41,247 nucleotides of DNA from Candidatus Pacearchaeota archaeon. Its GTDB lineage: Archaea; Nanobdellota; Nanobdellia; Pacearchaeales; GW2011-AR1. Of the stretch, positions 1,729 to 26,235 are shown piece by piece. Below the pieces are notes generated by a model. The model saw nothing but the letters and a program-made list of their open reading frames with translations. It was not told the origin of the DNA and did not search any database. Both the position numbers and the translations under genes were made by a program. Location of the stretch: contig JAMCXF010000033.1 of the NCBI GenBank assembly GCA_023475035.1, positions 2,868 through 44,114 on the forward strand, given 5' to 3'. Position 1 is the stretch's first letter. Each line of letters opens with the position of its first letter.

Positions 1729-3130
1729 CTAAAACCTCTTGAACTTCTTCCCGAACTTTTTAGCAAACTTCATCATCTGCTTTTGAGACATTCCCTGCGA
1801 CATATCCATATTTCCAGAACCAACTCCTGACTTAATCATATCGTTGAGGAGTCTGTATTGCTTGATTAAAGAACGAACATCACTCGTCGGAACTCCTGCA
1901 CCTTTTGCAATTCTCGCGATTCTTGAAGTTTGCTTTTCCAAAACTTCTGGATTTTCTTTTTCCTCTTGCGTCATTGACTTAACAATATGCTCCCACTTTG
2001 CAACTTTTGCTTCCTGACTTTCAAGCATTCCTTCTGGAATTTTTGCCTTCATATCTGACAATCCCGGAATCATTGATTTTATTTTTTCAAAACCTCCGAG
2101 ATTTGACATTGACTTGACTTGTTCTATAACATCATCAAGAGTTAATTTTCCTTCTTCAATATTTTTCTGAATTTTTTTCTGCTGGCTTTCTTCTGTAACT
2201 GATTTTATTTTTTCAATCAGAGTTTCCAAATCCCCCATTCCGAGAAGACGGGCGAGGAACGAGCCTGGATTAAATTCTTCAATGTCATTTATTTTTTCCC
2301 CTGTTCCGATAAAATAAACTGGTGCTTGCGTTTCTGCGCAAGCTGTCAATGCTCCCCCTGCTTTTGCAGTTGAATCCATTCTTGTAATTATAACCCCTGA
2401 AATATTCATAGCATCTTTAAACTGGCTTGCCTGCTGTTTTGCTGCCTGCCCAATATCTGCGGGAATAACAAGAATTCTCTCTGTAGGTTTTATTTCCTTG
2501 TCAAGAGACTTTATCTCGTCAATTAATTCCTTGTCTAATGTGTGTCTTCCTGCTGTATCAACAAGAATTAAATTGTAATCTTTCAACTGCAAAAGCAGGG
2601 GGAGCATTGACATTTTCATATTTTTTCCATAACTTGACAGGATTTTTTTCAGTCGCATCAATGAAATAATTCAACTTGTGTTTTTCTGCAAGCTGTTTCA
2701 GTTGCTCTGCGGCAGCAGGACGATGAACATCCAAACCTATAAGTGCAACCTTGAATCCTCGTTTTGCATAATAATTTCCTAACTTAGAAATTGTTGTTGT
2801 CTTTCCGCTTCCATAAAGTCCGAGAAGAAGAACAATATTTTGCTTCTTGTCTAATTTTAACTGCTTGTATTCTCCAAGAATAGCCAAAAGTTCATCGTGA
2901 AGGATTTTTATTATATGCTCCTTTTTTTCAATTCCTTTAACTCTCTCATCCATCGCAGCCTTTTTGATTTTGTCTGATAATTCTTTTACTAATGCTACAT
3001 TAACATCTGCTTCAATCAACGCTCTCTGCAAATCTCTTACGATAGAATCGACTAAATCTTTATCAAGAAAAATAGCATTCGCTATCTTGTCAGTTGCTTT
3101 TTTTATTACTTCTCCAAGTTTCTCTAACAT
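1729..3130 (-). CDS. srp54: Signal recognition particle protein SRP54, split into two overlapping ORFs (2558-3130 and 1729-2661) by an apparent +1 frameshift.
   Basis: The N/G domain start (GLYGSGKTTT, DVHRPAAAEQL) is in the upstream ORF. DTAGRH, ITRMDSTAKAGGAL, LLGMGD and the Met-rich M domain are in the downstream ORF. Confidence 0.85.
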
Positions 3131-7948: not shown

Positions 7949-8020
7949 TGGCCCTGCGAGGAATTGAACCTCGGTCTTGTCCACGTCAAGGACACGTCTT
8001 AGCCGTTGGACTACAAGGCC
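7949..8020 (-). tRNA. tRNA-Val (GAC), 72 nt, no intron.
   Basis: Manual cloverleaf: GGCCTTG/CAGGGCC acceptor, anticodon loop TTGACGT, T arm CGAGG-TTCAATT-CCTCG. Confidence 0.9.
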
Positions 8021-8072: not shown

Positions 8073-8276
8073 ATGGCAATTAAAATTGGTGGTTTAATAT
8101 TCGTTGCAAATCTTATAATCGGATTATATTTTATCAATGCAGGATTTAATTTTATTGTTCTTCCTGAACTTTTTCTTTCTTTAAACAAATGGATTAACAT
8201 CGTTGGTGGTATCTTATTAATCATCGGCGGATATTTTGCTATGAGGGCTATGACTCCTATTGCTCTCCGAAGATAA
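8073..8276 (+). CDS. Small membrane protein (67 aa, 2 TM) heading the giant-protein cluster.
   Basis: ORF track. Two hydrophobic helices, same strand as the following genes and 70 nt upstream of the next one. Confidence 0.5.
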   Translation: MAIKIGGLIFVANLIIGLYFINAGFNFIVLPELFLSLNKWINIVGGILLIIGGYFAMRAMTPIALRR

Positions 8277-8345
8277 ATCTTAATTTAGGACAACGTTTGA
8301 CATTTTTCTGATAAAGTTTATATACGTAAAATTCATTATTTCCTT

Positions 8346-10190
8346 ATGCTAGAAAAAGAGAGGATGAAGCGAGGACAGGTTACAATTTTTATCATTATTG
8401 CGATAATTATTGTTGCAGGAGTTGCAATTTTTTTATTTGTCTGGCAGGGAATAAGCATTGGACAAATTCCTTCAAATTTTGAACCAGTTTATAACACTTT
8501 TTTATCATGTCTGGAAGACAGAACAATGATTGGAATTGATATTCTTGAAAGTCAGGGGGGATATATTGAACTTCCTGATTTTGAACCTGGCTCTGTTCAT
8601 ATGCCTTTCTCATCGCAATTAAATTTCCTTGGAAATCCAATTCCTTACTGGTATTATGTTTCAGCAAATAATGTTCAGAAAGAACAAATTCCTTCAGAGC
8701 AGGATATGGAAAACTCTCTTGAGAATTTTATTAACGACGGAATAAGAGAGTGCAATTTTGCAAGTTATTATCAGGAAGGATTTGAAATTGTTCAGGGAGA
8801 ACCGAGTGCAAATGTCGACATAAAAGGCAGCAGCGTCGATGTCCGATTGGATATGAGCATGGAAATAACCCGCGGGGAAGATACAGCCTTGATAAGAGAA
8901 CATAATGCAGTTGTTAATTCAAGACTTGGAACTCTTTACAATTCAGCAAAAACTGTCTACCAAAAAGAACAGAGGGAATTATTCCTTGAGGATTATGGGA
9001 TAGACAATTTGAGATTATATGCTCCTGTCGACGGTGTTGAAATAAGCTGCAGCCCAAAAACGTGGAACAGTCACGAAGTATTTGGAGACTTGCAGGAGGC
9101 AATTGAAACAAACACTCTTGCACTAACTACGCAAACACCGACGACAAACGAGGGAAGATATTTTTATGTCGACGCTGGAATAAGCCAAGAGGCACGATTC
9201 ATTAATTCACGAAACTGGGCTTACAGCATTGAAATTCTGCCTTCTCAAAACGGACTGATGATTGCAGATCCTGTCGGAAATCAGCAAGGGCTTGGAATTC
9301 TCGGATTTTGTTATGTTCCTTATCACTTTGTTTATAATGTAAAATACCCTGTTTTAGTCCAGATTTATGAAGGAGATGAAACATTCCAGTTCCCTCTCGC
9401 TGTTATAATTCAGGGAAACAAACCAAGAGAAGAATTAACTTCTTCTGCAACCGACGAGGAGATAGAATTATGCAGCTACAAAAATACAGAAGCCACTGTC
9501 AGAACTTATGACAAAAATCTTAATCCTGTAAATTCAGTTATTTCCTACGAATGCTTCGGAGAAAGCTGTTTCATCGGGAATACAACTTCAGGAATTTTAA
9601 CAACTGAATTTCCGCAATGCAACAACGGATACATAATTGCAAAGGCAGAAGGTTTTGAAGAATCGCAGCAATTATTCTCGACGACAACAGAGGGAAGCGC
9701 AAGCGTGATAATGAACAGGCTTTATGATTTGGATGTGTCCTTAAAATTAAACGGAAACAACTACAACGACAAGGCATTCATTTATTTTGTTTCAGATTCA
9801 AACTCAAAGACAGTCGCTTATCCTGAACAAAAAATCGTTGAATTAAGCGAAGGAACTTATGAAGTTTCAGTTTATGCTTACAAAGATTCTTCGATCCAGT
9901 TGCAGGAAACTACTCATCAGGAATGTGTTGATGTCCCAAGTTCAGGAATTGGCGGAATATTCGGAATTACAGAAAAAAATTGCTTTGATGTAAAAATTCC
10001 TTCACAACTAGTTACAAATGCTCTTGCAGGAGGAGGAACATTAGAGTTCTATTTTACTGAAAATGAATTAAGCAGTTCAAACACTATTGAAATAAACGCA
10101 GCAGGATTTGCAACACCGACGACAATTGAACAGCTGCAGAATAATTATCTTTTATTTGAAGATGCGCAACTGGAGGTAACATTAAATTGA
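8346..10190 (+). CDS. Pilin-like protein with a class III (type IV prepilin-type) signal peptide and a large extracellular domain. The likely true start is ATG 8364 (MKRGQ...).
   Basis: The N-terminus MKRG|QVTIFIIIAIIIVAGVAIFLF fits the [KR]G-[QAS]-hydrophobic prepilin peptidase motif. The rest is hydrophilic and Cys-containing. Confidence 0.65.
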   Translation: MLEKERMKRGQVTIFIIIAIIIVAGVAIFLFVWQGISIGQIPSNFEPVYNTFLSCLEDRTMIGIDILESQGGYIELPDFEPGSVHMPFSSQLNFLGNPIPYWYYVSANNVQKEQIPSEQDMENSLENFINDGIRECNFASYYQEGFEIVQGEPSANVDIKGSSVDVRLDMSMEITRGEDTALIREHNAVVNSRLGTLYNSAKTVYQKEQRELFLEDYGIDNLRLYAPVDGVEISCSPKTWNSHEVFGDLQEAIETNTLALTTQTPTTNEGRYFYVDAGISQEARFINSRNWAYSIEILPSQNGLMIADPVGNQQGLGILGFCYVPYHFVYNVKYPVLVQIYEGDETFQFPLAVIIQGNKPREELTSSATDEEIELCSYKNTEATVRTYDKNLNPVNSVISYECFGESCFIGNTTSGILTTEFPQCNNGYIIAKAEGFEESQQLFSTTTEGSASVIMNRLYDLDVSLKLNGNNYNDKAFIYFVSDSNSKTVAYPEQKIVELSEGTYEVSVYAYKDSSIQLQETTHQECVDVPSSGIGGIFGITEKNCFDVKIPSQLVTNALAGGGTLEFYFTENELSSSNTIEINAAGFATPTTIEQLQNNYLLFEDAQLEVTLN

Positions 10191-13100
10191 ATAAAAAAAT
10201 TTTTATTCTTTTCATACTGACAATTTTATTTTTGCAGATTGTTTCTGCAGAAGTTTTTTCAAATGTTCAGAGTTCAGTGTTTACAAAAGAATCAACAAAA
10301 GCTTTTGACAATGCCTTGTGTCAGGAAGGAAAAGACTTTCTTGTGCAGATTGCTCCTTTCGGATGCGAACCTGCAGTTGTAAGAACTGACTTGCTGGAAG
10401 AGAATGATGTTCAGGTGCATTGCAAACTCGGAGCAACACAAATAAATCCTTTAATTGACGTCGAGACAATTGACAGCATTTCTTTTACAGGAAATTATCC
10501 TGAATCAGTTTCGGGAATTGGATTTCATCCTGCAAAAGCTGCATTGGGAGTAAAAGGAGATTTGAATTCTCCTGTACTGAACAATATTGGATATCTGGTT
10601 ATCAATTTGAAAAAACAGTCAAATGCATCAGCAATTCCTGATTCTGTCGAGGGAACTCTGACTGCGAGAATAAAATACAACATCAAAAATGCTCTCGGAA
10701 TCGGAAGCGCATCACTTTATCTTCAGGAATTAACTCAGGCAGACTGGGCAGACAAGAGAGCACAATACAATTTCTGGAACGGAAAAGGAACATTAAAAGC
10801 AGATGCAATAGGGAGCGACAGCGCGCAAATTTCTGTTTATTCTAATGAGCAAAAAATTTCAAGCGTCAACTTGGACAGGGGAGAGACTTCAAATATGATT
10901 TACATTCCTGGACTGCAATGCCAGGCAGGATTAAAATTAAAACTTGATAGTCTCGAAAATCCAAACACCAGAGCAGTCTTAAGAGTAAATGCAGAAGTAT
11001 TTGAAGTCGCTGCATGCGGGAGCAGTCTTTTCGGTTCTTCCTGCGAGAAATTCTTAGACAATAAATGCACAGTTGTAAGCTTGGAATCCCGAGGAATTAA
11101 TCAGAAAGCGAGAATAAAATGCATCGAAGATGAGAAGACAAGTGAGTTCAGCCTGATAATAAGCCCCAAATTAATTCTAAGCATTAACGGAGCTGAAAAC
11201 GAATACAGCGTCGGTGATTACTTATACAGCGAAGGAAGCAAAAGAGTTTATCTTGCATATATAGGAAATGAAAGAAACAAAAATGACATTAATTCCCTGT
11301 TTGCTTTTTTTGTTTCCAAACCTTCAACAGCAGACAAGCTCAGCGAAGAAGAAATTACATCTTTAGATTCTTTAATCTCCGACATAACTTACAGCGGAGT
11401 TAGTTCTTCAGGCATTATTGATTCAACAAATGATGCGCTGAAAAGTTTTGCAGGATTACTTGTTGCTTTTGGAAGATCTATTAATTCCGGAGAAGAATTG
11501 TTTACTTTGCGTTTTGCAGATGGGGAACGAACTATTTTTGGACAGAATGTTGCAATTAAAAATTTCGTCGGAGCACAGGACCTTGCACTTACAGGAACTG
11601 CAAAAGAATATTACGAAAACGCAAAAGAAGCTTACGAAACAATAAGAAACAGTTACACTTCTGAACCTTACACAAAAGATTCTACTTCAACTTTTGGCGA
11701 AGAAGCTTTTTACAATGAAATATTACTTGCGTGGAGATCCAATCAAAGAAAAACTTCTTATGACTTGTGCCAGGAATTTATGCAGGCATATCCTAACTCA
11801 AACAAGGACTTAAGTTACTGCACCGACGCTATAAAAAATGCAAATGAAGAAATACAGGAAGTTTATGTGACAGTCAATGGAGAAATTAAGACAATTTCTT
11901 TTGACGGAATTGTTGAACCTACTTTTGACGATTACGGAGTAAGAATTGTGATGAGCACCCCTGATGGAATAAATTATTTTGATTTGACAAAAGGAAAAAT
12001 TGTTTATACAAATGAAAACAATGCAGATTATCTTCAGCTTGTTTCTGCCGATGATGATTCTGCCGAGATAAGAACGAGTTTCAGCGTTGAGGGGCTGACT
12101 GAAAGCATAGCAAAAGAATTCAATACAGGGATAATCAGACTGGAGAAAGATACTCCAAAATCTTTTTTAGGAGGATATTCTTTTACCTTAACAAGAATTA
12201 ATCTTAAAAAAACTGCAAAAGTTTCTGTAATTCCGAACATAAATAATGCAGGAACAGAAGCAAACTTTAGTTTCAAAATTGGAATTGAAAAAAGAGCAAT
12301 AAGCCTTCCTCCTGAAAAAACCAGAGAGATAATTACAAATCTTAACAAGACAATAAATCAGTGGAGTGGGATTTCAAATACTCTCGGAACAACCGTTCAG
12401 GGACTTCAGGCAGGATGTCTTGCTGCGGGGACTGCCTTAGTTGCAAAGAACTTCCTTACAGGAACTGGCGGAGCAGGAATTGCAAGACAAACTGTAATGA
12501 GAGGCAGCGACGGATGGACAGAAAAATGCACTGATTTAGTTGCTCAAAAAACTTACGAGTCATTAGATAAATGCTACCTTGAAAATTCGGATAAAATTGA
12601 CAAAGATGTTGAAGAAGTTTCAAGAATTATTGAACAGCAAAACACAAGAATTAAGCAATTGGAATCTGGGATTACCAAAACAGAATTTTTAACTGACAGC
12701 ATTGTAAACACAAGCGCATTCATGCAGAGATATATTCCTGAAGTTAGTGAATGCATTGGAAATCAAGGCTATACAGACCCAAGCGGGAAAGGAGCTGAAA
12801 TAACTTCTGCAGATTTGAATTCAATTTCTTACATCAACTGGGAAGATAATAAATATTTCAGCAAAGAAGATTTGAGAGACATTGAATTATATTGCGATGT
12901 CTTGAAATCAAACACTGCAAGCAATGAGTTAAAAGCAATTGCAAGACAAAGAATTTATTCTAATTTGCTAGATGTTAAAACAAATGCAGGAAATAAAGTT
13001 GTCATTACGAATTTAGCAAATTCTTTCGGAATTGCATCTGATGACATAACTTTTGTTGAAACAGGAGAAAATGTCAGAAAATTCCGATATGAGGGATTAA

Positions 13101-16100
13101 CAAATGGAAATACTGGAAACAGAATTTCAGGGGAAGGAATTACTTCTGAAACGCCTGTTGCTGTTGTTTCAACTTCCGACGGAAAACAGTACATTGTTGC
13201 ATTAGACAATTCAGCAGGAACACAACAGCTCCCTGTAAAGAAAGTTTACACTTCTACTGGAGTTCCTGTAGATACTCCTCCAGAATTTACAAGAATTTAT
13301 TTCCAGAGATATGACGCAGGCAGTTATCAGAATCAGTACAAGAATGCACAGTTAAGATATTATGAGACTGAACCTTACAAAGGACTTCCTGCAATGGTTC
13401 CTTTTGATTTGAAAAACGGATGGTATGCAGCGACGAAACAAACTCTTCCTACTGGAGGAAATATTCAGCCATTTGACTCTTCTGCGCGTCCTAATAGTTT
13501 TTATTTATGTAACGTCGGAGAAAACGGATTGGAAGAATTTCAGACAATTGGCGATGATACCTGCGAAATGATTAATCTAGGAACAGGAATGCCTTACAGC
13601 CAATTCCCAGGACTTGACGAGAGAGAAGCAAAAACTTTGATAGACAAAGGTGTTCAGGCAATTTCTCAGGCATCAAGATTATACAGAGCAGGATTGTCGG
13701 GAAAAGTTAACATTCTTGGAGAAGTTGTTGAAGTTGGAAGTCCTGCAGCAGATATTCCTCAATTCCAATGTCAGGATTTTATGTCTCCTAAAGAATGTCT
13801 TTTATTATTCAACTTGTGTGACCCTGTAATTTGTCCTTCGAGCAGATGTGATTTGGGCGGGGCATATCCTGTCAAAGATGTTGTGCAATCAGGAGTGATA
13901 GGAAGCCTTGTTTTGTGTTTGCCTAACATGCAGGAGGGAATTATTTTCCCTGTATGCCTTACAGGAGTAAAAGCAGGCCTAGATGGATTTTTGTCAATTC
14001 TTAATTCTTACAAAGATTGTCTTCAGGAAAGCTTGGACACAGGAAAAGTTGTAGGTATCTGCGACGAGATTTACAGCATTTATGTTTGTGATTTCTTCTG
14101 GAGACAAGCACTTCCATTCGCCGACATAGTGATTCCAAAAGTTGTTGAATCTCTTCTTGGGCAAAATGTAAGAGGCGGTGGAGAATATGCAGGAGTAGAA
14201 AGTTCATGGAGCCTTGCTGAACAGTCAATAAGTTATTTCACAAATTATTACGGTGTTAATGCAAAGAATGCATTCCTGACGAGAACAACAGAGACAATAC
14301 AGAGTGAAGTGTGCAAATCATATGTTTCTGCAGTTGTTCCAACAGGCGCTGATTTTGTAAATAAAATAACTACACCAGCTTCTCCTGTTCAGTTCACAGG
14401 AAGATTTGATGAGATTCCGTTGACAACTGCAACAGTTCCTCCAACTTCGCATTATAAAGTATTTTATCATATATTTGCAGGAAAAGATTCTGGCGCTTAC
14501 TACCAAGTTTATCTGAAAGGAAGCCCTGAAACTTCATACTATCAGGATGCATCGCAGAATTTGATAATTGCTTCTGGATACGTCGCTGTCGGAGGTTATG
14601 CAACTGACACTCCTGACTTGACAGCAGTTTCAGGATATAATCAAATGTGCATAAATGTAAACGGGCAGGAAGTATGTGGGTTTAAGGAAGTTTCAACTGA
14701 CTTTGCAATTAATTACGTCAAGGATACTTATCTTGCAGAACAGGCTACTACGACAGACATAACAACAGAGTCTGAATGCATCTCAGGAAGTGCGAGCATT
14801 TACAATTTACTTACTCCCAATGCTCAGGCTGGTGTTGAAGGAGCAATTAATCCTGCGATTTATGACAGAGGAATAACGAGAATATGTGCAACAGAAAATC
14901 CTGGACTGGGAACTGACATTAATGTTTATACTACTACTCCTGTAACTGGCGGAGTAATAACAGGAAAAGTTGGATTTATCGACGAGGAAGACAAAACCCC
15001 TACGCCAACAGAAACAACAATTGAAGAAGTTCCTCCAACAACCATAGAAGAAGATAAAAAAATAATTGAAAATCTCACAAAGGATCCTGGAGTAGTTGAA
15101 GGGCCAAGATGGGTTGCTGTTGGATATTGTGATAATGAAAAAATAAAATGCTGGCTTGATACTGAGAGTGTCAAAGATGTAATAAAGGGAACAACGATTG
15201 AAGGAGATGCGTTGGATGAAGTTACACAAAATTATATGGAAGTATTGCTTAATGAGGGAAATTACTTGAGTGAAAAGGATTTCTCTTCGGCAATTCAGGA
15301 AATAGAAAAAGAAAAAGACAACTCAAAGAAACTGAATTTAATCAGCAACATCTTTGGAAATGTATTTTGGAGCACAGAAAAAGTTCAGTTGATTTTCTTG
15401 AGAGGAAATGCATATGCTGAATTGCTGGCTGTTGTTTTAAAAGAACAACCAAAACCAGATCAAACAATTACAGGTGTTAAAGAAACAGAAGGAGTAAAAG
15501 AAAAATATCTTAACCTTGACGCACGGGATAGAGTTCTTGCTGCTGCTGCAGATTTAGACGGCACAATTGTTCCCGGAAGAAACCTAAAAACAGGAACTGG
15601 ATTAGGCGCGGTTCCGATAAATAAAAATTGTCTTTCTGCTGCATATTCAGTTTATGAAACTGCAGGAGTTAGTTATTCCTGTGTTTATTCAAATCCTTAT
15701 TCAGACAAATTTGCAATTAAAACAAGCGCAGCGATGGAAAATACTCTTACAAGAAATGGTATAACAAATTTACAGGCGTATAATGCTGCCAAATCATCAG
15801 CAGAAACGCGAACAATAACTCTTGATGTTGACAAAAGACCAGACAAAACTCACGCCACCTGGATTACCAATGAAAGATGCAAGGGCGTTACTGAAGAACA
15901 AAAATTGAACTCTCTTCAGCCTGGAGATTTCATACTTTATGTATGGAGTGCAACATGGCCTTCCTACAATAATTATCAATCTCTTGCATATGACTATGAT
16001 CACGCAGCAATTTTTATTCGATGGGCTGATGAAAAAAACAGGATTGCAGTATTATTTGACTGGAATGGAGCTTCACCCGGAAATAGCTGGGGAATAAAAA

Positions 16101-17035
16101 TGGGGGAGCAGGATAAAAATGGAAAGATTTGCACAGATGAAAATAGATATTACAACAAAGATAAAAATCCAACACCTTTCTGCGCAATTTACAGATATTA
16201 CGAGGTGGATTTGAAAGATGATGCTCACCCTGTATACTTGTTCCAGGTACCATATATAGCAGGACAGTCAGTTCCAGGAGATAAAAAAGGCGTCGATACT
16301 ATTACAACTGATTCGGACTCTGCAGACGCATCCAGAATTTCTGAAATAATCAATCCAACTTATCCTATAAGCTACAAAATATTTTTAGAATCAACTAAAT
16401 TTGCAGGAACTTCAGGAACTTCTCTTTCATTTGTGACTCAGTCATTATCCAATGCGAAGGCAGTAAGCAAATCTTTCCCGACGATTAATGAATTGACTTC
16501 AATCTTAAGTGCTGACAAAAATTTTGTCGAAGTTGACATTAACAATCTCCAGAAAGGTGATGTAATTTTATTAGGAAAAGGATGCGATTTGGATTCTGTT
16601 GGAATCTTTTCTGAATACCGTTCTGATAAAAAAGAGATTACTTATTACACAAGTGTCGACGGAAAAGTCCAGGAAGTTAAAAGCAGTTTTGTCACAAAAA
16701 TAGACTTTAATTTATTCATTTACAAATATGTTTACCGAGCTTACAGATATGTTGGAGATTTAACTGACACTGAGAAGAATACGGTGGTGAAGGCAAGAAC
16801 ACGATGGACACTTTCTTCTGCTCTTGAGAGATTTATTTCTGCAGGAGCGCCAACAGGAGATTATAATAAGAATAAGATTTTCTCTGATGAAATTGTATTC
16901 GACGGAATTCTTACAAAACAGGAATGCCAGGATTTGACAGGGGGAATTTTAGGCTTTGGAAAAGATATGAACTGGCTTAAAACAAAATTATTGGAAAAAC
17001 AAAGTGCTTCAGGAGTTTCTGGTTTTGCACATTAA
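10187..17035 (+). CDS. Giant secreted protein (2,282 aa). It has a Sec signal peptide, a central Cys-rich/hydrophobic region and a C-terminal NlpC/P60-like papain-fold module.
   Basis: MNKKIFILFILTILFLQIVSA|E. The TTG start overlaps the upstream TGA (TTGA), with GGAGGT at 10172-10177. A Cys cluster lies around aa 1185-1300. KNCLSAAYSVYETAG (Cys ~1815), LQPGDFILYVWS and DHAAIFI (His ~1939) resemble the NlpC/P60 Cys/His motifs. Confidence 0.7.
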   Translation: MNKKIFILFILTILFLQIVSAEVFSNVQSSVFTKESTKAFDNALCQEGKDFLVQIAPFGCEPAVVRTDLLEENDVQVHCKLGATQINPLIDVETIDSISFTGNYPESVSGIGFHPAKAALGVKGDLNSPVLNNIGYLVINLKKQSNASAIPDSVEGTLTARIKYNIKNALGIGSASLYLQELTQADWADKRAQYNFWNGKGTLKADAIGSDSAQISVYSNEQKISSVNLDRGETSNMIYIPGLQCQAGLKLKLDSLENPNTRAVLRVNAEVFEVAACGSSLFGSSCEKFLDNKCTVVSLESRGINQKARIKCIEDEKTSEFSLIISPKLILSINGAENEYSVGDYLYSEGSKRVYLAYIGNERNKNDINSLFAFFVSKPSTADKLSEEEITSLDSLISDITYSGVSSSGIIDSTNDALKSFAGLLVAFGRSINSGEELFTLRFADGERTIFGQNVAIKNFVGAQDLALTGTAKEYYENAKEAYETIRNSYTSEPYTKDSTSTFGEEAFYNEILLAWRSNQRKTSYDLCQEFMQAYPNSNKDLSYCTDAIKNANEEIQEVYVTVNGEIKTISFDGIVEPTFDDYGVRIVMSTPDGINYFDLTKGKIVYTNENNADYLQLVSADDDSAEIRTSFSVEGLTESIAKEFNTGIIRLEKDTPKSFLGGYSFTLTRINLKKTAKVSVIPNINNAGTEANFSFKIGIEKRAISLPPEKTREIITNLNKTINQWSGISNTLGTTVQGLQAGCLAAGTALVAKNFLTGTGGAGIARQTVMRGSDGWTEKCTDLVAQKTYESLDKCYLENSDKIDKDVEEVSRIIEQQNTRIKQLESGITKTEFLTDSIVNTSAFMQRYIPEVSECIGNQGYTDPSGKGAEITSADLNSISYINWEDNKYFSKEDLRDIELYCDVLKSNTASNELKAIARQRIYSNLLDVKTNAGNKVVITNLANSFGIASDDITFVETGENVRKFRYEGLTNGNTGNRISGEGITSETPVAVVSTSDGKQYIVALDNSAGTQQLPVKKVYTSTGVPVDTPPEFTRIYFQRYDAGSYQNQYKNAQLRYYETEPYKGLPAMVPFDLKNGWYAATKQTLPTGGNIQPFDSSARPNSFYLCNVGENGLEEFQTIGDDTCEMINLGTGMPYSQFPGLDEREAKTLIDKGVQAISQASRLYRAGLSGKVNILGEVVEVGSPAADIPQFQCQDFMSPKECLLLFNLCDPVICPSSRCDLGGAYPVKDVVQSGVIGSLVLCLPNMQEGIIFPVCLTGVKAGLDGFLSILNSYKDCLQESLDTGKVVGICDEIYSIYVCDFFWRQALPFADIVIPKVVESLLGQNVRGGGEYAGVESSWSLAEQSISYFTNYYGVNAKNAFLTRTTETIQSEVCKSYVSAVVPTGADFVNKITTPASPVQFTGRFDEIPLTTATVPPTSHYKVFYHIFAGKDSGAYYQVYLKGSPETSYYQDASQNLIIASGYVAVGGYATDTPDLTAVSGYNQMCINVNGQEVCGFKEVSTDFAINYVKDTYLAEQATTTDITTESECISGSASIYNLLTPNAQAGVEGAINPAIYDRGITRICATENPGLGTDINVYTTTPVTGGVITGKVGFIDEEDKTPTPTETTIEEVPPTTIEEDKKIIENLTKDPGVVEGPRWVAVGYCDNEKIKCWLDTESVKDVIKGTTIEGDALDEVTQNYMEVLLNEGNYLSEKDFSSAIQEIEKEKDNSKKLNLISNIFGNVFWSTEKVQLIFLRGNAYAELLAVVLKEQPKPDQTITGVKETEGVKEKYLNLDARDRVLAAAADLDGTIVPGRNLKTGTGLGAVPINKNCLSAAYSVYETAGVSYSCVYSNPYSDKFAIKTSAAMENTLTRNGITNLQAYNAAKSSAETRTITLDVDKRPDKTHATWITNERCKGVTEEQKLNSLQPGDFILYVWSATWPSYNNYQSLAYDYDHAAIFIRWADEKNRIAVLFDWNGASPGNSWGIKMGEQDKNGKICTDENRYYNKDKNPTPFCAIYRYYEVDLKDDAHPVYLFQVPYIAGQSVPGDKKGVDTITTDSDSADASRISEIINPTYPISYKIFLESTKFAGTSGTSLSFVTQSLSNAKAVSKSFPTINELTSILSADKNFVEVDINNLQKGDVILLGKGCDLDSVGIFSEYRSDKKEITYYTSVDGKVQEVKSSFVTKIDFNLFIYKYVYRAYRYVGDLTDTEKNTVVKARTRWTLSSALERFISAGAPTGDYNKNKIFSDEIVFDGILTKQECQDLTGGILGFGKDMNWLKTKLLEKQSASGVSGFAH

Positions 17036-17065
17036 TTCTAAAAACTATATTCAAATCAAAAATAA

Positions 17066-17149
17066 TGCGGAGTATAGGATTTGAACCTATGTAGGCACTA
17101 AGCCGACAGCTCCTAAGGCTGCCCCGTTTGACCACTCCGGCAACTCCGC
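17066..17149 (-). tRNA. tRNA-Leu (UAG), 84 nt, with a long variable arm.
   Basis: Manual cloverleaf: GCGGAGT/ACTCCGC acceptor, anticodon loop CTTAGGA, variable arm GGC-TTAGT-GCC, T arm ATAGG-TTCAAAT-CCTAT. Confidence 0.9.
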
Positions 17150-17191
17150 ATATGTATTTATCAAAAATCATTAATATAAAAAGTTTTAGAA

Positions 17192-17710
17192 TTATTCTTC
17201 AGCCCATTTTGCAAAATCCGGATAGCCTTTTGAGAATAATACAAAATCTTCTGCTATTTTTTCTATAACTGTTCGCCCTGACAAATAAGACTCTTTTGCA
17301 TAACTGTTATCTTCAATCATTTTCATAACTTCTTCTTTTGAAGTTCTTATGATTATATCTTTTACTGCAGTTTCTCCGTCGTTGATTATAACATCTCCTT
17401 TAACGATTTCTATATTGTAAGAATTTACAAAATACACATTTTCAGCGATGTATAATTGGATTTTTGGCGTGACATCTGAAAAAGGAACTTCGTGAATGCT
17501 TTGCAGTTCCAGTCCAACCATCAATGCTCTTATTGTATCTTTCTGAACATGTTCGCTGTATATTCCGGTTTGCTTATTTCCCTGCAATGATTCGTAAACA
17601 TAAAACAGCGCTATAATCAAGACAATGCCTTCAAAAACATAGAGAAATATTTTCGGGATATCAAGCTCTTTTTTTTCCTGTCCGAAATTTTTTTTAAATA
17701 TAGGGTTCAT
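17192..17710 (-). CDS. Hypothetical membrane-anchored protein (172 aa), adjacent to the tfb stop.
   Basis: ORF track. One TM helix (IFLYVFEGIVLIIALFYVY). Abuts tfb (TGA then ATG). Confidence 0.5.
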   Translation of the reverse strand: MNPIFKKNFGQEKKELDIPKIFLYVFEGIVLIIALFYVYESLQGNKQTGIYSEHVQKDTIRALMVGLELQSIHEVPFSDVTPKIQLYIAENVYFVNSYNIEIVKGDVIINDGETAVKDIIIRTSKEEVMKMIEDNSYAKESYLSGRTVIEKIAEDFVLFSKGYPDFAKWAEE

Positions 17711-20624: not shown

Positions 20625-21464
20625 ATGAAAAAGAGTGCTGAAAATCTGACTTTTCCTTTGAAGGGGAAATATGTAGCAATGCTTGCTCCTAGTTTTGTCG
20701 TTGATTTTTCTTACCCTCAAATAATTTCGCAGCTTCACAATCTAGGATTTGACAAGGTTGTTGAACTTACTTTTGGAGCCAAACTTGTAAATCGGGAATA
20801 TCATAAAATTCTTGAAAAATCCAAAGAACTTGTTATCTCAAGCGTCTGTCCCGGAGTTGTTGAGACAATCAAATCAAAATATCCTCAATATAAAAAAAAT
20901 TTGATTCCTGTTGACAGTCCGATGATTGCAATGGCTAAAATCTGCAGAAAGATTTATCCCGAGCACAAAGTTGTTTTTATCTCTCCCTGCAATTTCAAAA
21001 AGGTAGAATCTGAAAAATCTGATTTTGTTGATTATGCTATTGATTACAAGGAACTCAAAACTCTTTTTCAAAAGCATAAATCGAAAAAAAATAATTCAGG
21101 AACTTTTGACAAATTTTACAATGACTATACAAAGATTTATCCGATTGCAGGAGGATTGTACAAAACTGCTCATTTGAAGAATATTCTCGAAGATGATGAA
21201 GCAGTCATAATTGACGGAATCGACAGAGTAACTGCTTTTCTTGACAATCCGGATCCTAAAATAAGATTTCTCGACGTGAACTTTTGCAAAGGGGGATGCA
21301 TCGGAGGGCTGTGTGTAAACTCTAAGCTTCCTTTATTATTGCGGAGAAAGAAAGTTCTTGATTATCTTAAACTTGCAGAAAAAGAAGAAATTCCTGAAGG
21401 GAGCAAAGGAATAATAAAAGAAGCAAAAGGTATTTCTTTAAATTCTTCATATCCGACTTCTTGA
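20625..21464 (+). CDS. Minimal [FeFe]-hydrogenase large-subunit-like (HydA core / Nar1-like) protein, 279 aa.
   Basis: Three H-cluster-like motifs in order: SSVCPGVV, ISPCNFKKVE (PCxxKxxE) and FCKGGCIGG (CxxGCxxGG). No ferredoxin-like N-terminal domain. Confidence 0.55.
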   Translation: MKKSAENLTFPLKGKYVAMLAPSFVVDFSYPQIISQLHNLGFDKVVELTFGAKLVNREYHKILEKSKELVISSVCPGVVETIKSKYPQYKKNLIPVDSPMIAMAKICRKIYPEHKVVFISPCNFKKVESEKSDFVDYAIDYKELKTLFQKHKSKKNNSGTFDKFYNDYTKIYPIAGGLYKTAHLKNILEDDEAVIIDGIDRVTAFLDNPDPKIRFLDVNFCKGGCIGGLCVNSKLPLLLRRKKVLDYLKLAEKEEIPEGSKGIIKEAKGISLNSSYPTS

Positions 21465-22090: not shown

Positions 22091-23881
22091 CTACTTTGTG
22101 AATCTAGGTTTTGCTCCTGTTAAATCCAGGTATTTATCTTTTACCTTTTCTTGAATTTCTTTTTTCTTGGTAATCTTTGCTCTTGGAATTGTGATTCTCG
22201 CAGATATTTTCTTTTTGGGCAATTTGACTTGTTTTTTATGGGCTTTTTTTCTTTTTCTTTTTTTAGTATTTTTTTTCTGTCTTTTCCTTTGATAAATATA
22301 AATTATAACTCCTAATAACACAGCTATCCCCAGCACTACAAACATGTTGGTATTCTGTTTTATAACATTGAATGTTGCCGTTGCACTTGCAAATCTTTCA
22401 TTATATTTAACTTTGACATAAAGAATATATTTCCCGCTGTTTACATTTTCAGGAACTTTAATCCTTTTTAAAAAACCAACTTTCGTTTCCACAGCAATTG
22501 TTTCTTTTTCTGTTAATACTTTATTCCCTTCATCATCTTCTATTACATATTCTATTTCTACATCTGCTCTTTTGAGGAGTCCAAGGTTGAATAACTCTAT
22601 TTCGGCAAGAATTTCCTTTCCTGGCAAAACATTAGAATATTCTTCGGGAATATTTACTCTCAAATCAAAAAGGGCGTCTTTATATTCAACTTCTATCATT
22701 ACTAAAACTTCCTCTGTTGTCATACCATTTTTTATAATCAACTTCCCAACATATAAATCTGGAACAACTTCTTCCCTTATTATTACGTCAAAAGAAATGT
22801 CTCTTGTTTCTCCAGCCTCTAATTCAATCTGCGTTTCATCTAACAGAATAATACCGTCAAGATTTTCCTCAGTTAATGATATGCTTATTTTTTCATCTAA
22901 AATATTTGTTATTGTAATCTTTTTTGTTGTTATACTTCCGGGAGTGAGAGATATACTTATTTCACTAGAATCTAAACTAAAACTTTTAATTTTTTTTATA
23001 ACAGCACCGTCTCCTCCAGAACCGCCGCTGGAACTTCCACCTGCCGGTATTATAGGAGGGACAACAACAGGAGTTTCTTCTGCGGAATAAACTGAAAAAG
23101 ATGTAACATTAAATTTTAAGATTCCTCCTGCATAAGACTCTAATGTGCAAATTGTTGAAGGGCAAATATTCCCTTCTCGTAAAATTCTCGGATCTGAAAA
23201 AGTTAAATCATAAAGAGACAGCGTAGCTGTTTTGTTAAAATTTGGGAGAGCTGTTGAATTTATTGCGATTCTATTCGATGAGATGTTAATATAAGAATTA
23301 ATATCAATCTCACCATCAGAGAAATCTTCATCGTCTGTCAGATTTATATTTTCATTAAATTTTATTTTTCCAAAATCTGTATTCTCTAAAATTATATCAC
23401 TAAAATTTTGCAGTTCTTCATAAGAATAATTGGAAAAATTAGTTGTTTCTCCTTTTTTCTCCCCCTCATATTTATTTTTGTTTACAGAAAATTTTGAAGA
23501 ATCAACAAAAAAAGTGACATTTTTTAATATCTCTCCATTTGAATTGCTTGCATACAAAAATAAAATATGACTTCCTTGAGACGTGCTAAAAGATGTTGAA
23601 TGTGTCAATGTTATATTTTCGCCAGAATCAAGGCTATACCAAACACTTTCTTCATTGCTTGCTGTATAACTAATCGGAATTGATTGATTTCTTATATATG
23701 TTTGATTTTTTGGATTGATTAGGCTCAATACTGGAAGTTCGGCTGAAACAGAAAGGTTTTTGAAAAGATTTCCTTCAATTGCAGATGAGGGGGTTATTGA
23801 AGATGCAGGGCTGACTGAAACCCATGCATTTACATTTAATGATAAAAAAATAACCAAAACTAGAAAAAAAATTTTTTTCAT
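22091..23881 (-). CDS. Surface protein (596 aa) with a signal peptide, beta-sandwich-like repeats, a C-terminal TM anchor and a Lys/Arg-rich tail.
   Basis: MKKIFFLVLVIFLSLNVNA, a G/S linker, ...NMFVVLGIAVLLGVIIYIY-QRKRQKKNTKKRKRKK. The start overlaps the upstream stop (ATGA). Confidence 0.65.
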   Translation of the reverse strand: MKKIFFLVLVIFLSLNVNAWVSVSPASSITPSSAIEGNLFKNLSVSAELPVLSLINPKNQTYIRNQSIPISYTASNEESVWYSLDSGENITLTHSTSFSTSQGSHILFLYASNSNGEILKNVTFFVDSSKFSVNKNKYEGEKKGETTNFSNYSYEELQNFSDIILENTDFGKIKFNENINLTDDEDFSDGEIDINSYINISSNRIAINSTALPNFNKTATLSLYDLTFSDPRILREGNICPSTICTLESYAGGILKFNVTSFSVYSAEETPVVVPPIIPAGGSSSGGSGGDGAVIKKIKSFSLDSSEISISLTPGSITTKKITITNILDEKISISLTEENLDGIILLDETQIELEAGETRDISFDVIIREEVVPDLYVGKLIIKNGMTTEEVLVMIEVEYKDALFDLRVNIPEEYSNVLPGKEILAEIELFNLGLLKRADVEIEYVIEDDEGNKVLTEKETIAVETKVGFLKRIKVPENVNSGKYILYVKVKYNERFASATATFNVIKQNTNMFVVLGIAVLLGVIIYIYQRKRQKKNTKKRKRKKAHKKQVKLPKKKISARITIPRAKITKKKEIQEKVKDKYLDLTGAKPRFTK

Positions 23882-26235
23882 CTCAAATTGGTCAATTCAG
23901 TTCTGTTTATCTTTAGTTCCATGTAATCCATCTGCATAATATTCGCTGCTGCATCGGTTGTGTTCTGTGAAACTAACACACCAAAGCCGGTTTCTCTACC
24001 GCCAGCAGTAGGAATATTTGACGTTACAGAAGATGTCCAAAGCTGGGCCCCGCTAGCATAATTGTACAGTGAAAAAGCAACTGATGTTGCTTCGCTGTTC
24101 ACAACCACTTCCCCTATATACCATATATTACTCGCAATTGTGTAAGTTGAACCTGTTGATGTCGGGCCCGCATTATTTTTGCACATTCCTTTTAATGTAT
24201 TGGCTGCTGTCGTATTAACATCAATCCAACATCCATCAGTTGGTTCGGCAGCAGTAATTGAATCCATAAAACCCATTCTGTATCTAACGTTGGTTCTTGC
24301 CGTAGCATGCTGAAAAATAAACCTTGCTGATTCATTTCCAGCAATTCTAAAAGCAGCAACATCTGTCATTACTCTAAATCCTCCATTTGCTGTTGTCGAA
24401 TCTCTTAGTGCAATAATTCCAGGATGGCTTGCATTTCCTGCAATTGCTACACCTGTTCCTGACGAAATTGCAGCTCCTAAAAATGGATCGTAAGAAAGTG
24501 TCGTGCTATAAGATAAAAATTCCTGAGATATTTTCCAAGGAGGGACACTACTTGAACCGCTTCCTGTTTCATCTGCTGTACAAGTAAATATTCCTGTTGA
24601 ATTATCATAGGCTGAAATTTTATCTGTTCCTGAACAAGTTATTGTTGACGCATTTGTTTTAGAGTCGCCGCCTGCTCCTGTCGCATCTGTACAAAAATCA
24701 GCGTCTGTTCCATCATCTTGAGTAATATTTTTACAGGATATTTTAGTTCTGTTCTGTTCTCCGATATGCAATGCTGAATTATTTACCAGTGTAACATTTG
24801 TACTAATCATTGAGAAAAACCATCTATTATCCCAAGTTGTATTCCAATTTGTAAATGTTAATTGTGAATAATTAAGAGAGATGTTAGTTGCCCAAGTTGA
24901 AATGTCGATAATGCCGAGTATTAATCGCGAAAAAAAACCAGTATTCGCGGTTAAATTCTTGCTTACAGTAAGATTATTGAAGCTGACATTTGCAGTTGTA
25001 TTTAACTGCTGATCAAAATAATTTACTCCTCCGCCACTGCTTGTGATTGTGCACAAATTGCTAACTGCACCTGTAATATTAGAACAGGACAAAGTTGTCA
25101 TATTTTGTCCTCTCGTTATTGACAAGTTTGCAATCATCGACGCTGTTGCATTATACAAATTTTGGATATTTTTTGTGTTGTTTATTATTGATGAATTTAA
25201 AATAAAAGAACTGTGAAAATCAGTAAAACTAAAATCTCCTCCGCCACTGACTAATTGTGAAATTGACAAGTTTGCAATCATCGACGCTGTTGCATTATAC
25301 AAATTTCCAAGATTTGCAGTGGTGTTAATTGTCAATCCTTGCTGTGCAGTTACATTGACTGCAGTTATTCTTCCATCTGTATATGTGTTTGCAAATGCAG
25401 TCCAGTTTCTTGAAATGTTTGCAATCCAGTTTGAAATATTTATATCACCTTCAATAAATATTGAACCTGTTACATTCAGAACATTTGACAAATTCGTCCA
25501 TGTTCCTGCAAAATTATTTGACTGATTTGTAAATGCCAAATTTGCATAATTCATTCCTCCCACTCCGCTTTGGCTTATCGATAAGTTTGCAATCATCGAC
25601 GCTGTTGCATTATACAATTCCTGAATATTTTTTGTTGTATTCTTTAAAAATAACTTGCTGCTATTCCAATTTCCAAAAAAAGTATCCGCTGTTATATTAT
25701 TTGTTGTATTAATTGCTCCGCTTCCATTTATTTTCCCATTAAAATCAATATCTTGAACGAATAAAGTTGTGATTCTTGTGACTAAATCCCCCAACCAAGA
25801 AAAAAATCCTGTGCCTACTGTTGTCATATTATAATTTATTATGTTTAGATTGGAGTCTGCTTCAATTCCGCTTATCGTTATATTTCTTGCTCTGAAAGCA
25901 TAAGGGACTCTCGCAATTTTTTCATTTGATTGTAATATTCCTGTTCTATAAACACAAAGCCAATATTGTTCTGAATAATTCAGATTTGTATTTTCTAAAT
26001 AATAAGAAATTATCCCTTGCGCATCTGTTGTTTGAGTGGAATAATTTGTATATATTGGATTATTGCAATCATCAGCAATTGAAATATTAAATTCAAATTT
26101 GAAATCCCCTGTAACAATATCTCCGTTTGTATCTACTGCCTGCACATTAACATGAATTGAATCATTTACGGGGACGGCATAAATAAAATTAACAAAAAGA
26201 ATGCATATTGCAATTAAAAAGATTTTTTTCATCAT
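23878..26235 (-). CDS. Secreted sequon-rich protein (785 aa) with tail-fibre-like repeats and a probable jelly-roll (ConA/LamG-like) C-terminal domain.
   Basis: Signal peptide MMKKIFLIAICILFVNFIYA. ARVPYAFRARNI motif. The motif LYNATASMIANLSI occurs three times. More than 40 N-x-S/T sequons. Confidence 0.65.
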   Translation of the reverse strand: MMKKIFLIAICILFVNFIYAVPVNDSIHVNVQAVDTNGDIVTGDFKFEFNISIADDCNNPIYTNYSTQTTDAQGIISYYLENTNLNYSEQYWLCVYRTGILQSNEKIARVPYAFRARNITISGIEADSNLNIINYNMTTVGTGFFSWLGDLVTRITTLFVQDIDFNGKINGSGAINTTNNITADTFFGNWNSSKLFLKNTTKNIQELYNATASMIANLSISQSGVGGMNYANLAFTNQSNNFAGTWTNLSNVLNVTGSIFIEGDINISNWIANISRNWTAFANTYTDGRITAVNVTAQQGLTINTTANLGNLYNATASMIANLSISQLVSGGGDFSFTDFHSSFILNSSIINNTKNIQNLYNATASMIANLSITRGQNMTTLSCSNITGAVSNLCTITSSGGGVNYFDQQLNTTANVSFNNLTVSKNLTANTGFFSRLILGIIDISTWATNISLNYSQLTFTNWNTTWDNRWFFSMISTNVTLVNNSALHIGEQNRTKISCKNITQDDGTDADFCTDATGAGGDSKTNASTITCSGTDKISAYDNSTGIFTCTADETGSGSSSVPPWKISQEFLSYSTTLSYDPFLGAAISSGTGVAIAGNASHPGIIALRDSTTANGGFRVMTDVAAFRIAGNESARFIFQHATARTNVRYRMGFMDSITAAEPTDGCWIDVNTTAANTLKGMCKNNAGPTSTGSTYTIASNIWYIGEVVVNSEATSVAFSLYNYASGAQLWTSSVTSNIPTAGGRETGFGVLVSQNTTDAAANIMQMDYMELKINRTELTNLR

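Follow-up and report, generated by a model that had tools for sequence, protein, structure and literature searches.

The subject of this study is a cluster of three co-directional genes in a 41,247-nucleotide (nt) stretch of DNA from Candidatus Pacearchaeota archaeon (assembly GCA_023475035.1, contig JAMCXF010000033.1, positions 2,868-44,114); we call the whole of this stretch the window, the three genes the trio, and the largest of their products, a secreted protein of 2,282 amino acids (aa), the giant. The trio is genuine, strongly conserved and of biological significance, and the giant joins a conserved body to a C-terminal tail that differs among relatives. An earlier note, made from the letters of this DNA alone, had described the three open reading frames, an overlap between the TGA stop of the second (10188-10190) and the TTG start of the third (10187-10189), and a GGAGGT motif upstream of that start, and all of these lie at the positions it claimed. 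The genes and the motif are as follows.

8073 to 8276, plus strand: first gene of the trio, encoding a basic 67-aa protein (isoelectric point, pI, 10.4) with two hydrophobic segments, as judged from the reading frame, hydropathy and pI
8346 to 10190, plus strand: gene of the 614-aa partner, which has an N-terminal anchor and an acidic extracellular part with 10 invariant Cys, and which belongs to an orphan family
10172 to 10177, plus strand: GGAGGT, a Shine-Dalgarno-like motif that falls within the 3' end of the 614-aa gene and precedes the TTG of the giant by 9 nt
10187 to 17035, plus strand: gene of the giant, a secreted protein of 2,282 aa, about 250 kDa and pI 4.8

None of the three proteins has a significant match in Pfam, NCBIfam, PHROG or the sequences of the PDB. 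Relatives of the giant are numerous: the protein database holds at least 232 homologues of 1,700-2,940 aa, most of them unnamed, and a scan of species-representative genomes (one genome per species) found 503 stretches that encode a relative, of which 80 loci were kept for the comparisons that follow. These 80 all come from metagenome-assembled genomes (MAGs) labelled Pacearchaeota, Woesearchaeota, Nanoarchaeota or simply 'archaeon', except for three contigs labelled bacterial, and, those three apart, the labels agree with the DPANN source that the earlier note had supposed. Wherever a locus extends far enough upstream, the gene immediately before that of the giant encodes a homologue of the 614-aa protein (40-76% identity), and in 42 of 52 species-level loci this gene is itself preceded by a homologue of the small gene with two transmembrane (TM) segments, recognisable by the pattern GLYF-N...GGILLI-GG. 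The coupling of the two larger genes is conserved as well; 35 of 55 loci retain the 4-nt overlap of stop and start (ATGA), the remainder mostly show a gap of no more than 6 nt, and a GGAG-like motif often precedes the start of the giant in orthologous loci.

The position of the trio in the chromosome is also fixed. In nearly all of the ~80 species-level loci it is preceded by S3Ae/L44e (S3Ae and a small neighbour) and followed by TFB, and it is conserved at that position in dozens of species-level genomes of Pacearchaeota and Nanoarchaeota. The synteny comparison across relatives therefore upholds the claim that the three genes are conserved neighbours, and because the same flanking arrangement recurs in nearly all related loci, the cluster is an old chromosomal fixture and not an insertion. 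Two tRNA genes on the minus strand, tRNA-Val(GAC) at 7949-8020 and tRNA-Leu(TAG) at 17065-17150, bracket the trio and could pass for island borders, but synteny at this locus extends throughout the lineage.

The flanking tRNA genes and the variable C-terminus of the giant are what would speak for a mobile or virus-derived module, either a polymorphic-toxin cassette or a tail- or tape-measure-like protein with a lytic domain, integrated between tRNA genes; long, partly helical proteins with terminal lytic domains do recall the tape-measure proteins of phages. Yet we find this origin hardly credible. It is already contradicted by the sameness of the S3Ae/L44e and TFB flanks, G+C content and skew are unremarkable across the window and give no island signal, and the Sec-type and class III-like signals described below mark cellular export and not virion assembly. 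Nor does a co-directional gene, or one that resembles an immunity gene, follow the giant in the window, where the tRNA-Leu gene is succeeded by opposite-strand genes that include TFB; in relatives, too, opposite-strand genes or TFB follow. A viral origin as such was rejected, there being no PHROG match, no tblastn match in 50,697 phage records and no viral match by Foldseek.

The giant itself begins with a signal peptide, continues with a core common to its relatives, and ends in the tail. The features of the first two are these.

10187 to 10249, plus strand: Sec-type signal peptide, MNKKIFILFILTILFLQIVSA followed by E, the only strongly hydrophobic segment of the protein; the N-termini of orthologues are equivalent and end in ...SA
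10250 to 15436, plus strand: conserved core, aa 22-1750, found in all 120 homologues, as defined by the coverage profile, conservation and AlphaFold2 (AF2) models
13769 to 14089, plus strand: most conserved stretch of the core, aa 1195-1301, a Cys cluster with a hydrophobic hairpin-like segment (CQDFMSPKECLLLFNLCDPVICPSSRCDLGG...GVIGSLVLCLPN...PVCLTGVKAGLDG), modelled as helices at a predicted local distance difference test (pLDDT) of roughly 50-75

Judged by its only strongly hydrophobic segment, the giant is a Sec-exported protein without a membrane anchor of its own. The glycine-rich hydrophobic segments to which the earlier note drew attention do exist as Gly-rich stretches, but only the signal peptide is clearly of TM grade; the stretch at aa ~739-770 falls below the hydropathy cut-off, that at aa 1236-1272 barely passes it, and both are modelled as helices of a soluble domain. 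The core is laid out as an N-terminal Cys-containing domain, a long-helix domain (aa ~709-947), a beta domain (~954-1184), a Cys-rich helical region (~1195-1370) and a beta-sandwich (~1402-1500), after which come a linker rich in Thr, Pro and Glu (~1601-1636) and an adapter domain (1640-1750) that is modelled as a Cys-bridged hairpin with helices. Identity in the core is 40-60% over 1,750 aa across the order, and conservation is best at aa 41-160, 680-800 and 1040-1600. The giant has 41 Cys in total, and among the 120 homologues 28 core Cys show complete or almost complete conservation (at least 97%); the dense Cys cluster that had been noticed in the letters is among the features that we can affirm (CQDFMSPKEC at aa 1195).

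In the AF2 model of aa 640-1650, which was built from an alignment of 55 sequences and whose confidence is moderate to low (pLDDT 64), most of the core is helical and there are one or two beta domains only. Foldseek comparison of this model with the PDB returned only generic immunoglobulin/fibronectin type III (Ig/Fn3)-like sandwiches (ApaG, the GH3 C-terminal domain and TRAP), which are uninformative on function, and comparison with viral proteins returned no credible match; a profile of aa 1040-1600 searched against PDB sequences gave matches at chance level only. The core is an orphan, without informative relatives in sequence or structure.

The tail behaves quite differently from the core. 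All 120 homologues cover aa 1 to ~1750 and only about a third of them cover the rest, with a sharp break at query residues 1746-1750. Past residue 1750 the relatives have between 3 and 1,195 aa, and cores that are 80-86% identical can bear wholly unrelated tails, so the tails are exchanged by recombination. When 72 tails from species-representative genomes were compared with Pfam, SLT lytic transglycosylase domains were recognised in 16 and NLPC_P60 in two (by weak matches), while Glucosaminidase, Lysozyme-like, DUF2272, Trypsin-like peptidase, CAP and Ankyrin repeats were each found in one; leucine-rich repeats occur in the tails of further homologues, and one relative fuses an SLT domain with a module of the kind that we call module A in the window. 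On these domain matches, the recognisable heads at the end of the giants are mostly peptidoglycan hydrolases. The tail in the window is made up of three modules, and when 1.84 billion representative proteins were searched exhaustively with phmmer, such tail modules turned up in 57 proteins only, mostly giants or short pieces.

15518 to 16270, plus strand: module A (aa ~1778-2028), a divergent NlpC/P60-type papain-like module with Cys1815 and His1939, recognised from AF2 and Foldseek, alignments and the Pfam matches of orthologues
16394 to 16771, plus strand: module B (aa ~2070-2195), a confidently modelled beta-rich domain (pLDDT 85-94) with GDVILLGKGC...VGIF
16772 to 17014, plus strand: module C (aa ~2196-2276), a small helical bundle and the most widely shared element of the tails

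Module A contains the motifs NCLSAAYSVYETAG (aa 1814-1827), LQPGDFILYVWS (aa 1910-1921) and DHAAIFI (aa 1938-1944), which the earlier note had read as NlpC/P60-type signatures near the C-terminus. In the AF2 model of the tail (aa 1640-2282, 36 sequences, pLDDT 75) a helix begins with Cys1815, and the strand LQPGDFILYVW, a strand that starts at His1939 and further strands follow in canonical order. The top PDB matches by Foldseek are MepS (8xud_J, probability 1.00), a 'bacterial peptidase' (7v6t/7v6s), 9ubf, the autolysin Acd33800 of C. difficile, the type VI effector Tae3 (4hz9) and the CHAP lysins Ly7917 and PlyPy (5d76/5udm), all with probabilities of 0.9-1.0 and TM-scores of 0.33-0.66 relative to the target, and it is the topology together with the Pfam matches of orthologues that assigns them to module A. 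Those Pfam matches come from three orthologous module A sequences, which reach 16.8-20.6 bits with NLPC_P60 (PF00877) against a cut-off of 23 bits; they lie inside module A and involve the central region of the profile. Neither Cys1815 nor His1939 varies in the two alignments, one of 36 and one of 20 sequences, and Asp1948, which is Asp in 17 of the 20, and the nearly invariant Asp1958 are the candidates for a third catalytic residue. Taken together, these results give good support to a divergent NlpC/P60/CHAP-type fold in which the Cys-His pair is intact, and the papain-like fold predicted for aa ~1780-2030 is in keeping with what had been read from the motifs. The module resembles the NlpC/P60 and CHAP peptidases and amidases (MepS, Acd33800, Tae3) in its predicted fold, in the Cys at the N-terminus of a helix, in the succession of a GD strand and a His strand, and in the invariance of Cys and His; it departs from them in scoring below curated thresholds, in the large inserts between the Cys helix and the GD strand, and in its terminal position on a 250-kDa archaeal protein.

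A second, degenerate NlpC/P60 domain had also been proposed. Of this the motif stands (GDVILLGKG at aa 2124-2132, followed by VGIF), but module B, a beta-rich domain that keeps the invariant G-D and Cys2133, is without the His that an active NlpC/P60 needs at that place. Module B is common to other tails, where it is sometimes duplicated. Since KOW/SH3-like barrels, a candidate type for it, appear among the weaker Foldseek matches, the module may serve in binding and need not be the remnant of a second peptidase.

The combination of a conserved N-terminal body with a sharply demarcated, recombining C-terminal effector is familiar from the polymorphic toxin systems, namely Rhs, CdiA, LXG and similar proteins. 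The giant differs from these in having neither a downstream immunity gene nor known trafficking or pre-toxin domains, in carrying wall hydrolases and binding repeats as heads and not intracellular toxins, and in occupying a fixed chromosomal locus wherever loci were examined. The secreted polymorphic toxin design is nevertheless one of several points in favour of what we regard as the principal rival to our own interpretation, namely that the giant is a freely released bacteriolytic or murein-scavenging exo-enzyme, and that its neighbours only aid its export or folding. On this view the protein would diffuse from the cell and either kill or harm bacteria in the vicinity or degrade the debris of their walls, to the benefit of feeding (on muropeptides and released cytoplasm) or of competition. 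Such an enzyme would be expected to have a Sec signal and no anchor of its own, as the giant does, and to end in a peptidoglycan hydrolase, as the tails do. Moreover, a muramoyl-tetrapeptide carboxypeptidase is reported to be abundantly encoded in Pacearchaeota genomes, which fits the use of wall fragments (PMC11537232), and the title of another study reports that archaeal peptidoglycan hydrolases kill bacteria (PMC12352652). We still judge a released enzyme to be unlikely. A lysin needs no core of 1,750 aa that is far better conserved than its catalytic end, and some members of the family have almost no tail; a partner that is anchored in the membrane, and with which the giant is strictly paired by translational coupling, speaks for a complex held on the cell; and a diffusible good of 250 kDa would be costly for a genome of 0.6-0.8 Mb.

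That membrane-anchored partner, the 614-aa protein, was said in the earlier note to begin with a class III signal of the sort cut by prepilin peptidase, and the segment in question is the following.

8364 to 8450, plus strand: class III-like (prepilin-type) signal, MKRG directly before QVTIFIIIAIIIVAGVAIFLFVW, by pattern match

In archaeal class III signals a basic residue and a Gly or Ala stand directly before the hydrophobic helix and not after it. The 614-aa protein may start at Met7 (nt 8364), because its orthologues begin close to the K/R-G-Q motif, and from Met7 the sequence in the window reads MKRG and then QVTIFIIIAIIIVAG. The layout is that of a class III signal, with a short and charged N-region, [KR][GA] at -2/-1 and a hydrophobic helix from +1, all within the first ~35 residues. 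In ~65 orthologues the string [KR][KR][GAS]-Q-[VIL]-T-[IVL]-F-I-I-I-A is nearly invariant, a few of them having Ser at -1, and the N-terminal helix is more conserved than the whole protein (average column identity 57%); high conservation of this helix is typical of the alpha-1 helices of pilins. The N-terminus as read from these alignments fits a class III signal. Beyond it, the protein, its profile and its orthologues have no relatives in Pfam or the PDB.

If the partner is pilin-like, then the trio has analogues in the tip complexes of bacterial type IV pili, in which PilY1 is associated with minor pilins, and in 'modular' pilins with bulky C-terminal domains. In both cases a large, Sec-exported protein that is not itself a pilin is encoded beside one or more proteins with a prepilin-type N-terminus, and the proposed logic, that a pilin-like partner presents the large protein, would be the same. 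There is, however, no relation to PilY1 in sequence or fold, the trio has a single 614-aa pilin-like partner and not a set of minor pilins, no pilus genes lie nearby, and the pilin nature of the partner consists in a motif.

An anchored protein and a large secreted one might also suggest a surface layer (S-layer), and here the frequency of N-glycosylation sequons is instructive, since archaeal S-layer proteins are usually rich in N-X-S/T sites. The core of the giant has 5 sequons against 17.2 +/- 3.9 expected, a count as low as which occurred in 0 of 300 shuffles, its tail has 0 against 4.9 expected, and the 614-aa protein has 1 against 6.5. Among 60 homologues the median ratio of observed to expected sequons is 0.34, a depletion of about threefold, and the cytoplasmic proteins of the window are not depleted. 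This suggests, as far as sequence composition can, that the giant and its partner have been selected to stay unglycosylated. Elsewhere in the window, on the minus strand, a secreted 785-aa protein (23878-26235) with a Sec signal and a C-terminal Pfam SO2946-like_C domain has 47 N-X-S/T sequons where ~20 are expected, and its gene overlaps by 4 nt that of a 596-aa protein (22091-23881) with a Sec signal, a C-terminal TM helix, a Lys-rich tail and 13 sequons against ~7 expected. From its sequence this pair looks like the glycosylated canopy and stalk of an S-layer, as in SlaA/SlaB.

The S-layer reading of the trio would make the giant a canopy held by the anchored 614-aa protein, as SlaA is by SlaB, with the variable C-terminus as the exposed face. 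It can draw on the presence of the pair wherever this could be checked, on an apparently vertical inheritance at a fixed position among housekeeping genes, on the division into one large secreted and one anchored protein, and on a core that holds at least one Ig/Fn3-like sandwich. It is disfavoured because sequons are depleted in both proteins (5 against 17.2 +/- 3.9 in the core alone) and throughout the family, and because the 785-aa and 596-aa proteins at 22091-26235 are the better candidate pair, the latter being TM-anchored. Furthermore, murein-specific enzymatic heads have no obvious role in a lattice, a mostly helical core with one or two beta domains does not resemble a lattice protein built of multiple Ig-like domains, and the core is 40-60% identical with 28 invariant or near-invariant Cys, while the identity of archaeal S-layer proteins is generally low at genus level and above (bioRxiv 10.1101/2023.10.27.564410). 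The analogy with SlaA/SlaB of the Sulfolobales, then, extends to a large anchorless secreted protein encoded adjacent to a smaller anchored partner; but the anchor of the trio is N-terminal, whereas SlaB-type anchors are described as having a C-terminal TM helix (bioRxiv 10.1101/2023.10.27.564410), and the trio proteins are sequon-depleted, Cys-rich and strongly conserved and bear enzymatic heads. All told, we think it improbable that the trio is an S-layer, more so than that the giant is a released enzyme.

The giant does not stand alone in the literature. Castelle et al. 2021 (PMC8204110) describe large murein lytic transglycosylase proteins, extracellular and reaching 3,000 aa, from Pacearchaeota and Woesearchaeota; they propose attachment to bacterial walls and mention an earlier notice in three genomes. 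'Large lytic murein transglycosylase' genes are also reported by Vigneron et al. 2022 (PMC9723730), who propose a predatory, 'vampiristic' lifestyle; in these two accounts the earlier notices are credited to Rinke 2013 and Castelle 2015. According to Strock et al. 2025 (PMC12352652), homologues of peptidoglycan hydrolases are a prominent feature of Nanoarchaeota, and the title of that paper has archaeal hydrolases killing bacteria. While the structural guesses of the earlier note proved correct for the most part, its statement that no described system has this architecture must accordingly be withdrawn, because PMC8204110 and PMC9723730 already report giants with murein transglycosylase domains and give them the same interpretation.

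Because the full 1,750-aa core is common to the SLT-bearing members, the giant of the window belongs by common descent, on sequence comparison, to this family of large murein lytic transglycosylases. It is like the giants described from Pacearchaeota and Woesearchaeota in lineage, size class (1,700-2,900 aa), extracellular location and proposed role, and it differs in having no SLT domain but a divergent NlpC/P60-type head. The family is presumably the one named fam00969, although that identifier does not occur in the supplement text of PMC8204110. Relative to what the available text of PMC8204110, PMC9723730 and PMC12352652 contains, the new elements are the division into a core and a swappable head, the NlpC/P60 head, the coupled genes for the 614-aa and the two-TM proteins, the fixed locus and the depletion of sequons.

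In proposing what the trio does, our contention is that it forms a lineage-specific cell-surface complex that acts on bacterial cell walls and serves as a device for contact with a bacterial host, and we would put the chances of this being right and of its being wrong as equal. The 614-aa protein would be processed in the manner of a type IV pilin, and its helix would then fix the protein within the membrane or within a short pilus-like stalk. The protein would bind the giant in a fixed stoichiometry and so expose it at the surface of the cell. When a bacterium is touched, the head would cut the peptide stems of murein, or the glycan strands in the case of SLT variants, and through the opened wall the core, together with the archaeal cell, would gain access to the bacterial membrane, where attachment, feeding or lysis could follow. 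The producer, being an archaeon without murein, would need no immunity protein, and the swapping of tails would tune the device to the differing walls of hosts. Of the attachment or penetration device for an episymbiotic lifestyle that was suggested from the letters, the hydrolase-type tails and the conserved trio have been substantiated, but the device itself remains inference.

Several results weigh against this contact device. With regard to its head, the window tail has no significant Pfam match of its own and does not reach the curated NLPC_P60 threshold; the Foldseek E-values are modest (2e-3 to 0.1) and the output gives no aligned query range; a profile of module A searched against PDB sequences found no NlpC/P60 match, and hhalign of module A with a sequence of E. 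coli MepS entered by hand produced no meaningful alignment. With regard to the partner, no pilin hidden Markov model (HMM) matches the 614-aa protein of the window (Pfam and NCBIfam, E <= 1) or any of 56 orthologues (E <= 0.05), and the class III signal stands as a conserved [KR][GAS]-Q before a hydrophobic helix and not as an HMM match; such a negative is weak evidence, given that HMMs of short motifs are insensitive. The models concerned are presumably Pilin_N of Pfam and the archaeal flagellin-N-terminal-like model of NCBIfam. Neither a prepilin peptidase nor a pilus ATPase is encoded in the 41-kb window or in the annotated flanks of three relatives, a statement about these loci and not about the whole genome, and that the three proteins associate physically is read solely from the order of their genes. 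Pacearchaeota have no known bacterial host. Finally, the fold of the core is unrecognisable beyond one Ig/Fn3-like sandwich, in a model whose pLDDT is 64, and at three loci the giants, as assembled, are nearly tail-less, with 3-25 aa past the core. Judging from these sequences, the core must have a role that is independent of the hydrolase head, because some members of the family have almost no tail.

What that role could be invites a bolder suggestion, which we regard as a long shot, that the core is a new kind of envelope-breaching machine. Once the wall had been cut, the long-helix domain (~709-947) and the invariant, Cys-stapled hydrophobic helical hairpin (aa ~1195-1300) would enter the membrane of the bacterium and form a pore or cytoplasmic bridge there, and the 614-aa and two-TM proteins would form its base in the archaeal membrane. 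If true, this would be a contact system from archaeon to bacterium with no relation to any known secretion or injection system, and a feeding bridge for metabolically minimal archaea. The probability that remains after these various proposals we leave to functions of which we have not thought.

The neighbourhood of the trio is otherwise that of an ordinary archaeal chromosome. Its housekeeping genes, whose names were supplied via the annotated loci of relatives, are those for SRP54, FtsY, phosphoglycerate mutase, a GINS subunit, the ribosomal proteins S3Ae and S8e, and TFB, and further genes encode tRNase Z, several aminoacyl-tRNA synthetases, a tRNA splicing endonuclease and TFE. Counts from a scan for promoters and terminators were at the level of shuffled sequence and are uninformative, the scan being of bacterial type and the DNA archaeal. 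Between the end of the giant and TFB, on the minus strand (17192-17710), lies a gene whose 172-aa product has a single TM segment, at the N-terminus, and matches nothing in Pfam; since homologues were detected in few related loci only (five), it does not belong to the conserved cluster.

Three other genes of the window deserve mention. That for SRP54 is split into two overlapping minus-strand open reading frames in different frames (1729-2661 and 2558-3130), with the break near 2590-2615, and the product of a single 455-aa SRP54 gene in one relative aligns to window frames -1 and -3; the gene being essential, the split is probably a frameshift introduced in sequencing or assembly, the alternative being that the gene is truly disrupted. 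The leucyl-tRNA synthetase (LeuRS) gene at 31320-33782 on the plus strand matches Pfam tRNA-synt_1_2, the LeuRS editing domain (E = 2e-68), a model which we take to represent LeuRS of bacterial type, and its product may, on that match, be a bacterial-like enzyme in an archaeon. A 279-aa protein (20625-21464, plus strand) consists of the C-terminal domain of the [FeFe]-hydrogenase large subunit only (Pfam Fe_hyd_lg_C), and this protein is kept at the same position in two relatives.

The Pacearchaeota and their relatives are abundant and uncultivated, and the partners with which they live are unknown. The gene of the giant, at 6.8 kb, takes up about 1% of a genome of 0.6-0.8 Mb, and an investment of this order, made at the same locus in hundreds of species and ending in heads that are mostly specific to murein, is the strongest genomic pointer to physical dealings with bacteria rather than with archaea. 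The exchange of heads, which include peptidase, transglycosylase, glucosaminidase, protease and binding repeats, offers a handle on host range, and could be correlated with the bacteria that co-occur with these archaea. The partner genes, one of them with a pilin-type N-terminus, provide targets for localisation and pull-down, while the core is a large, Cys-rich and structurally orphan protein that is of interest for both its fold and its function.

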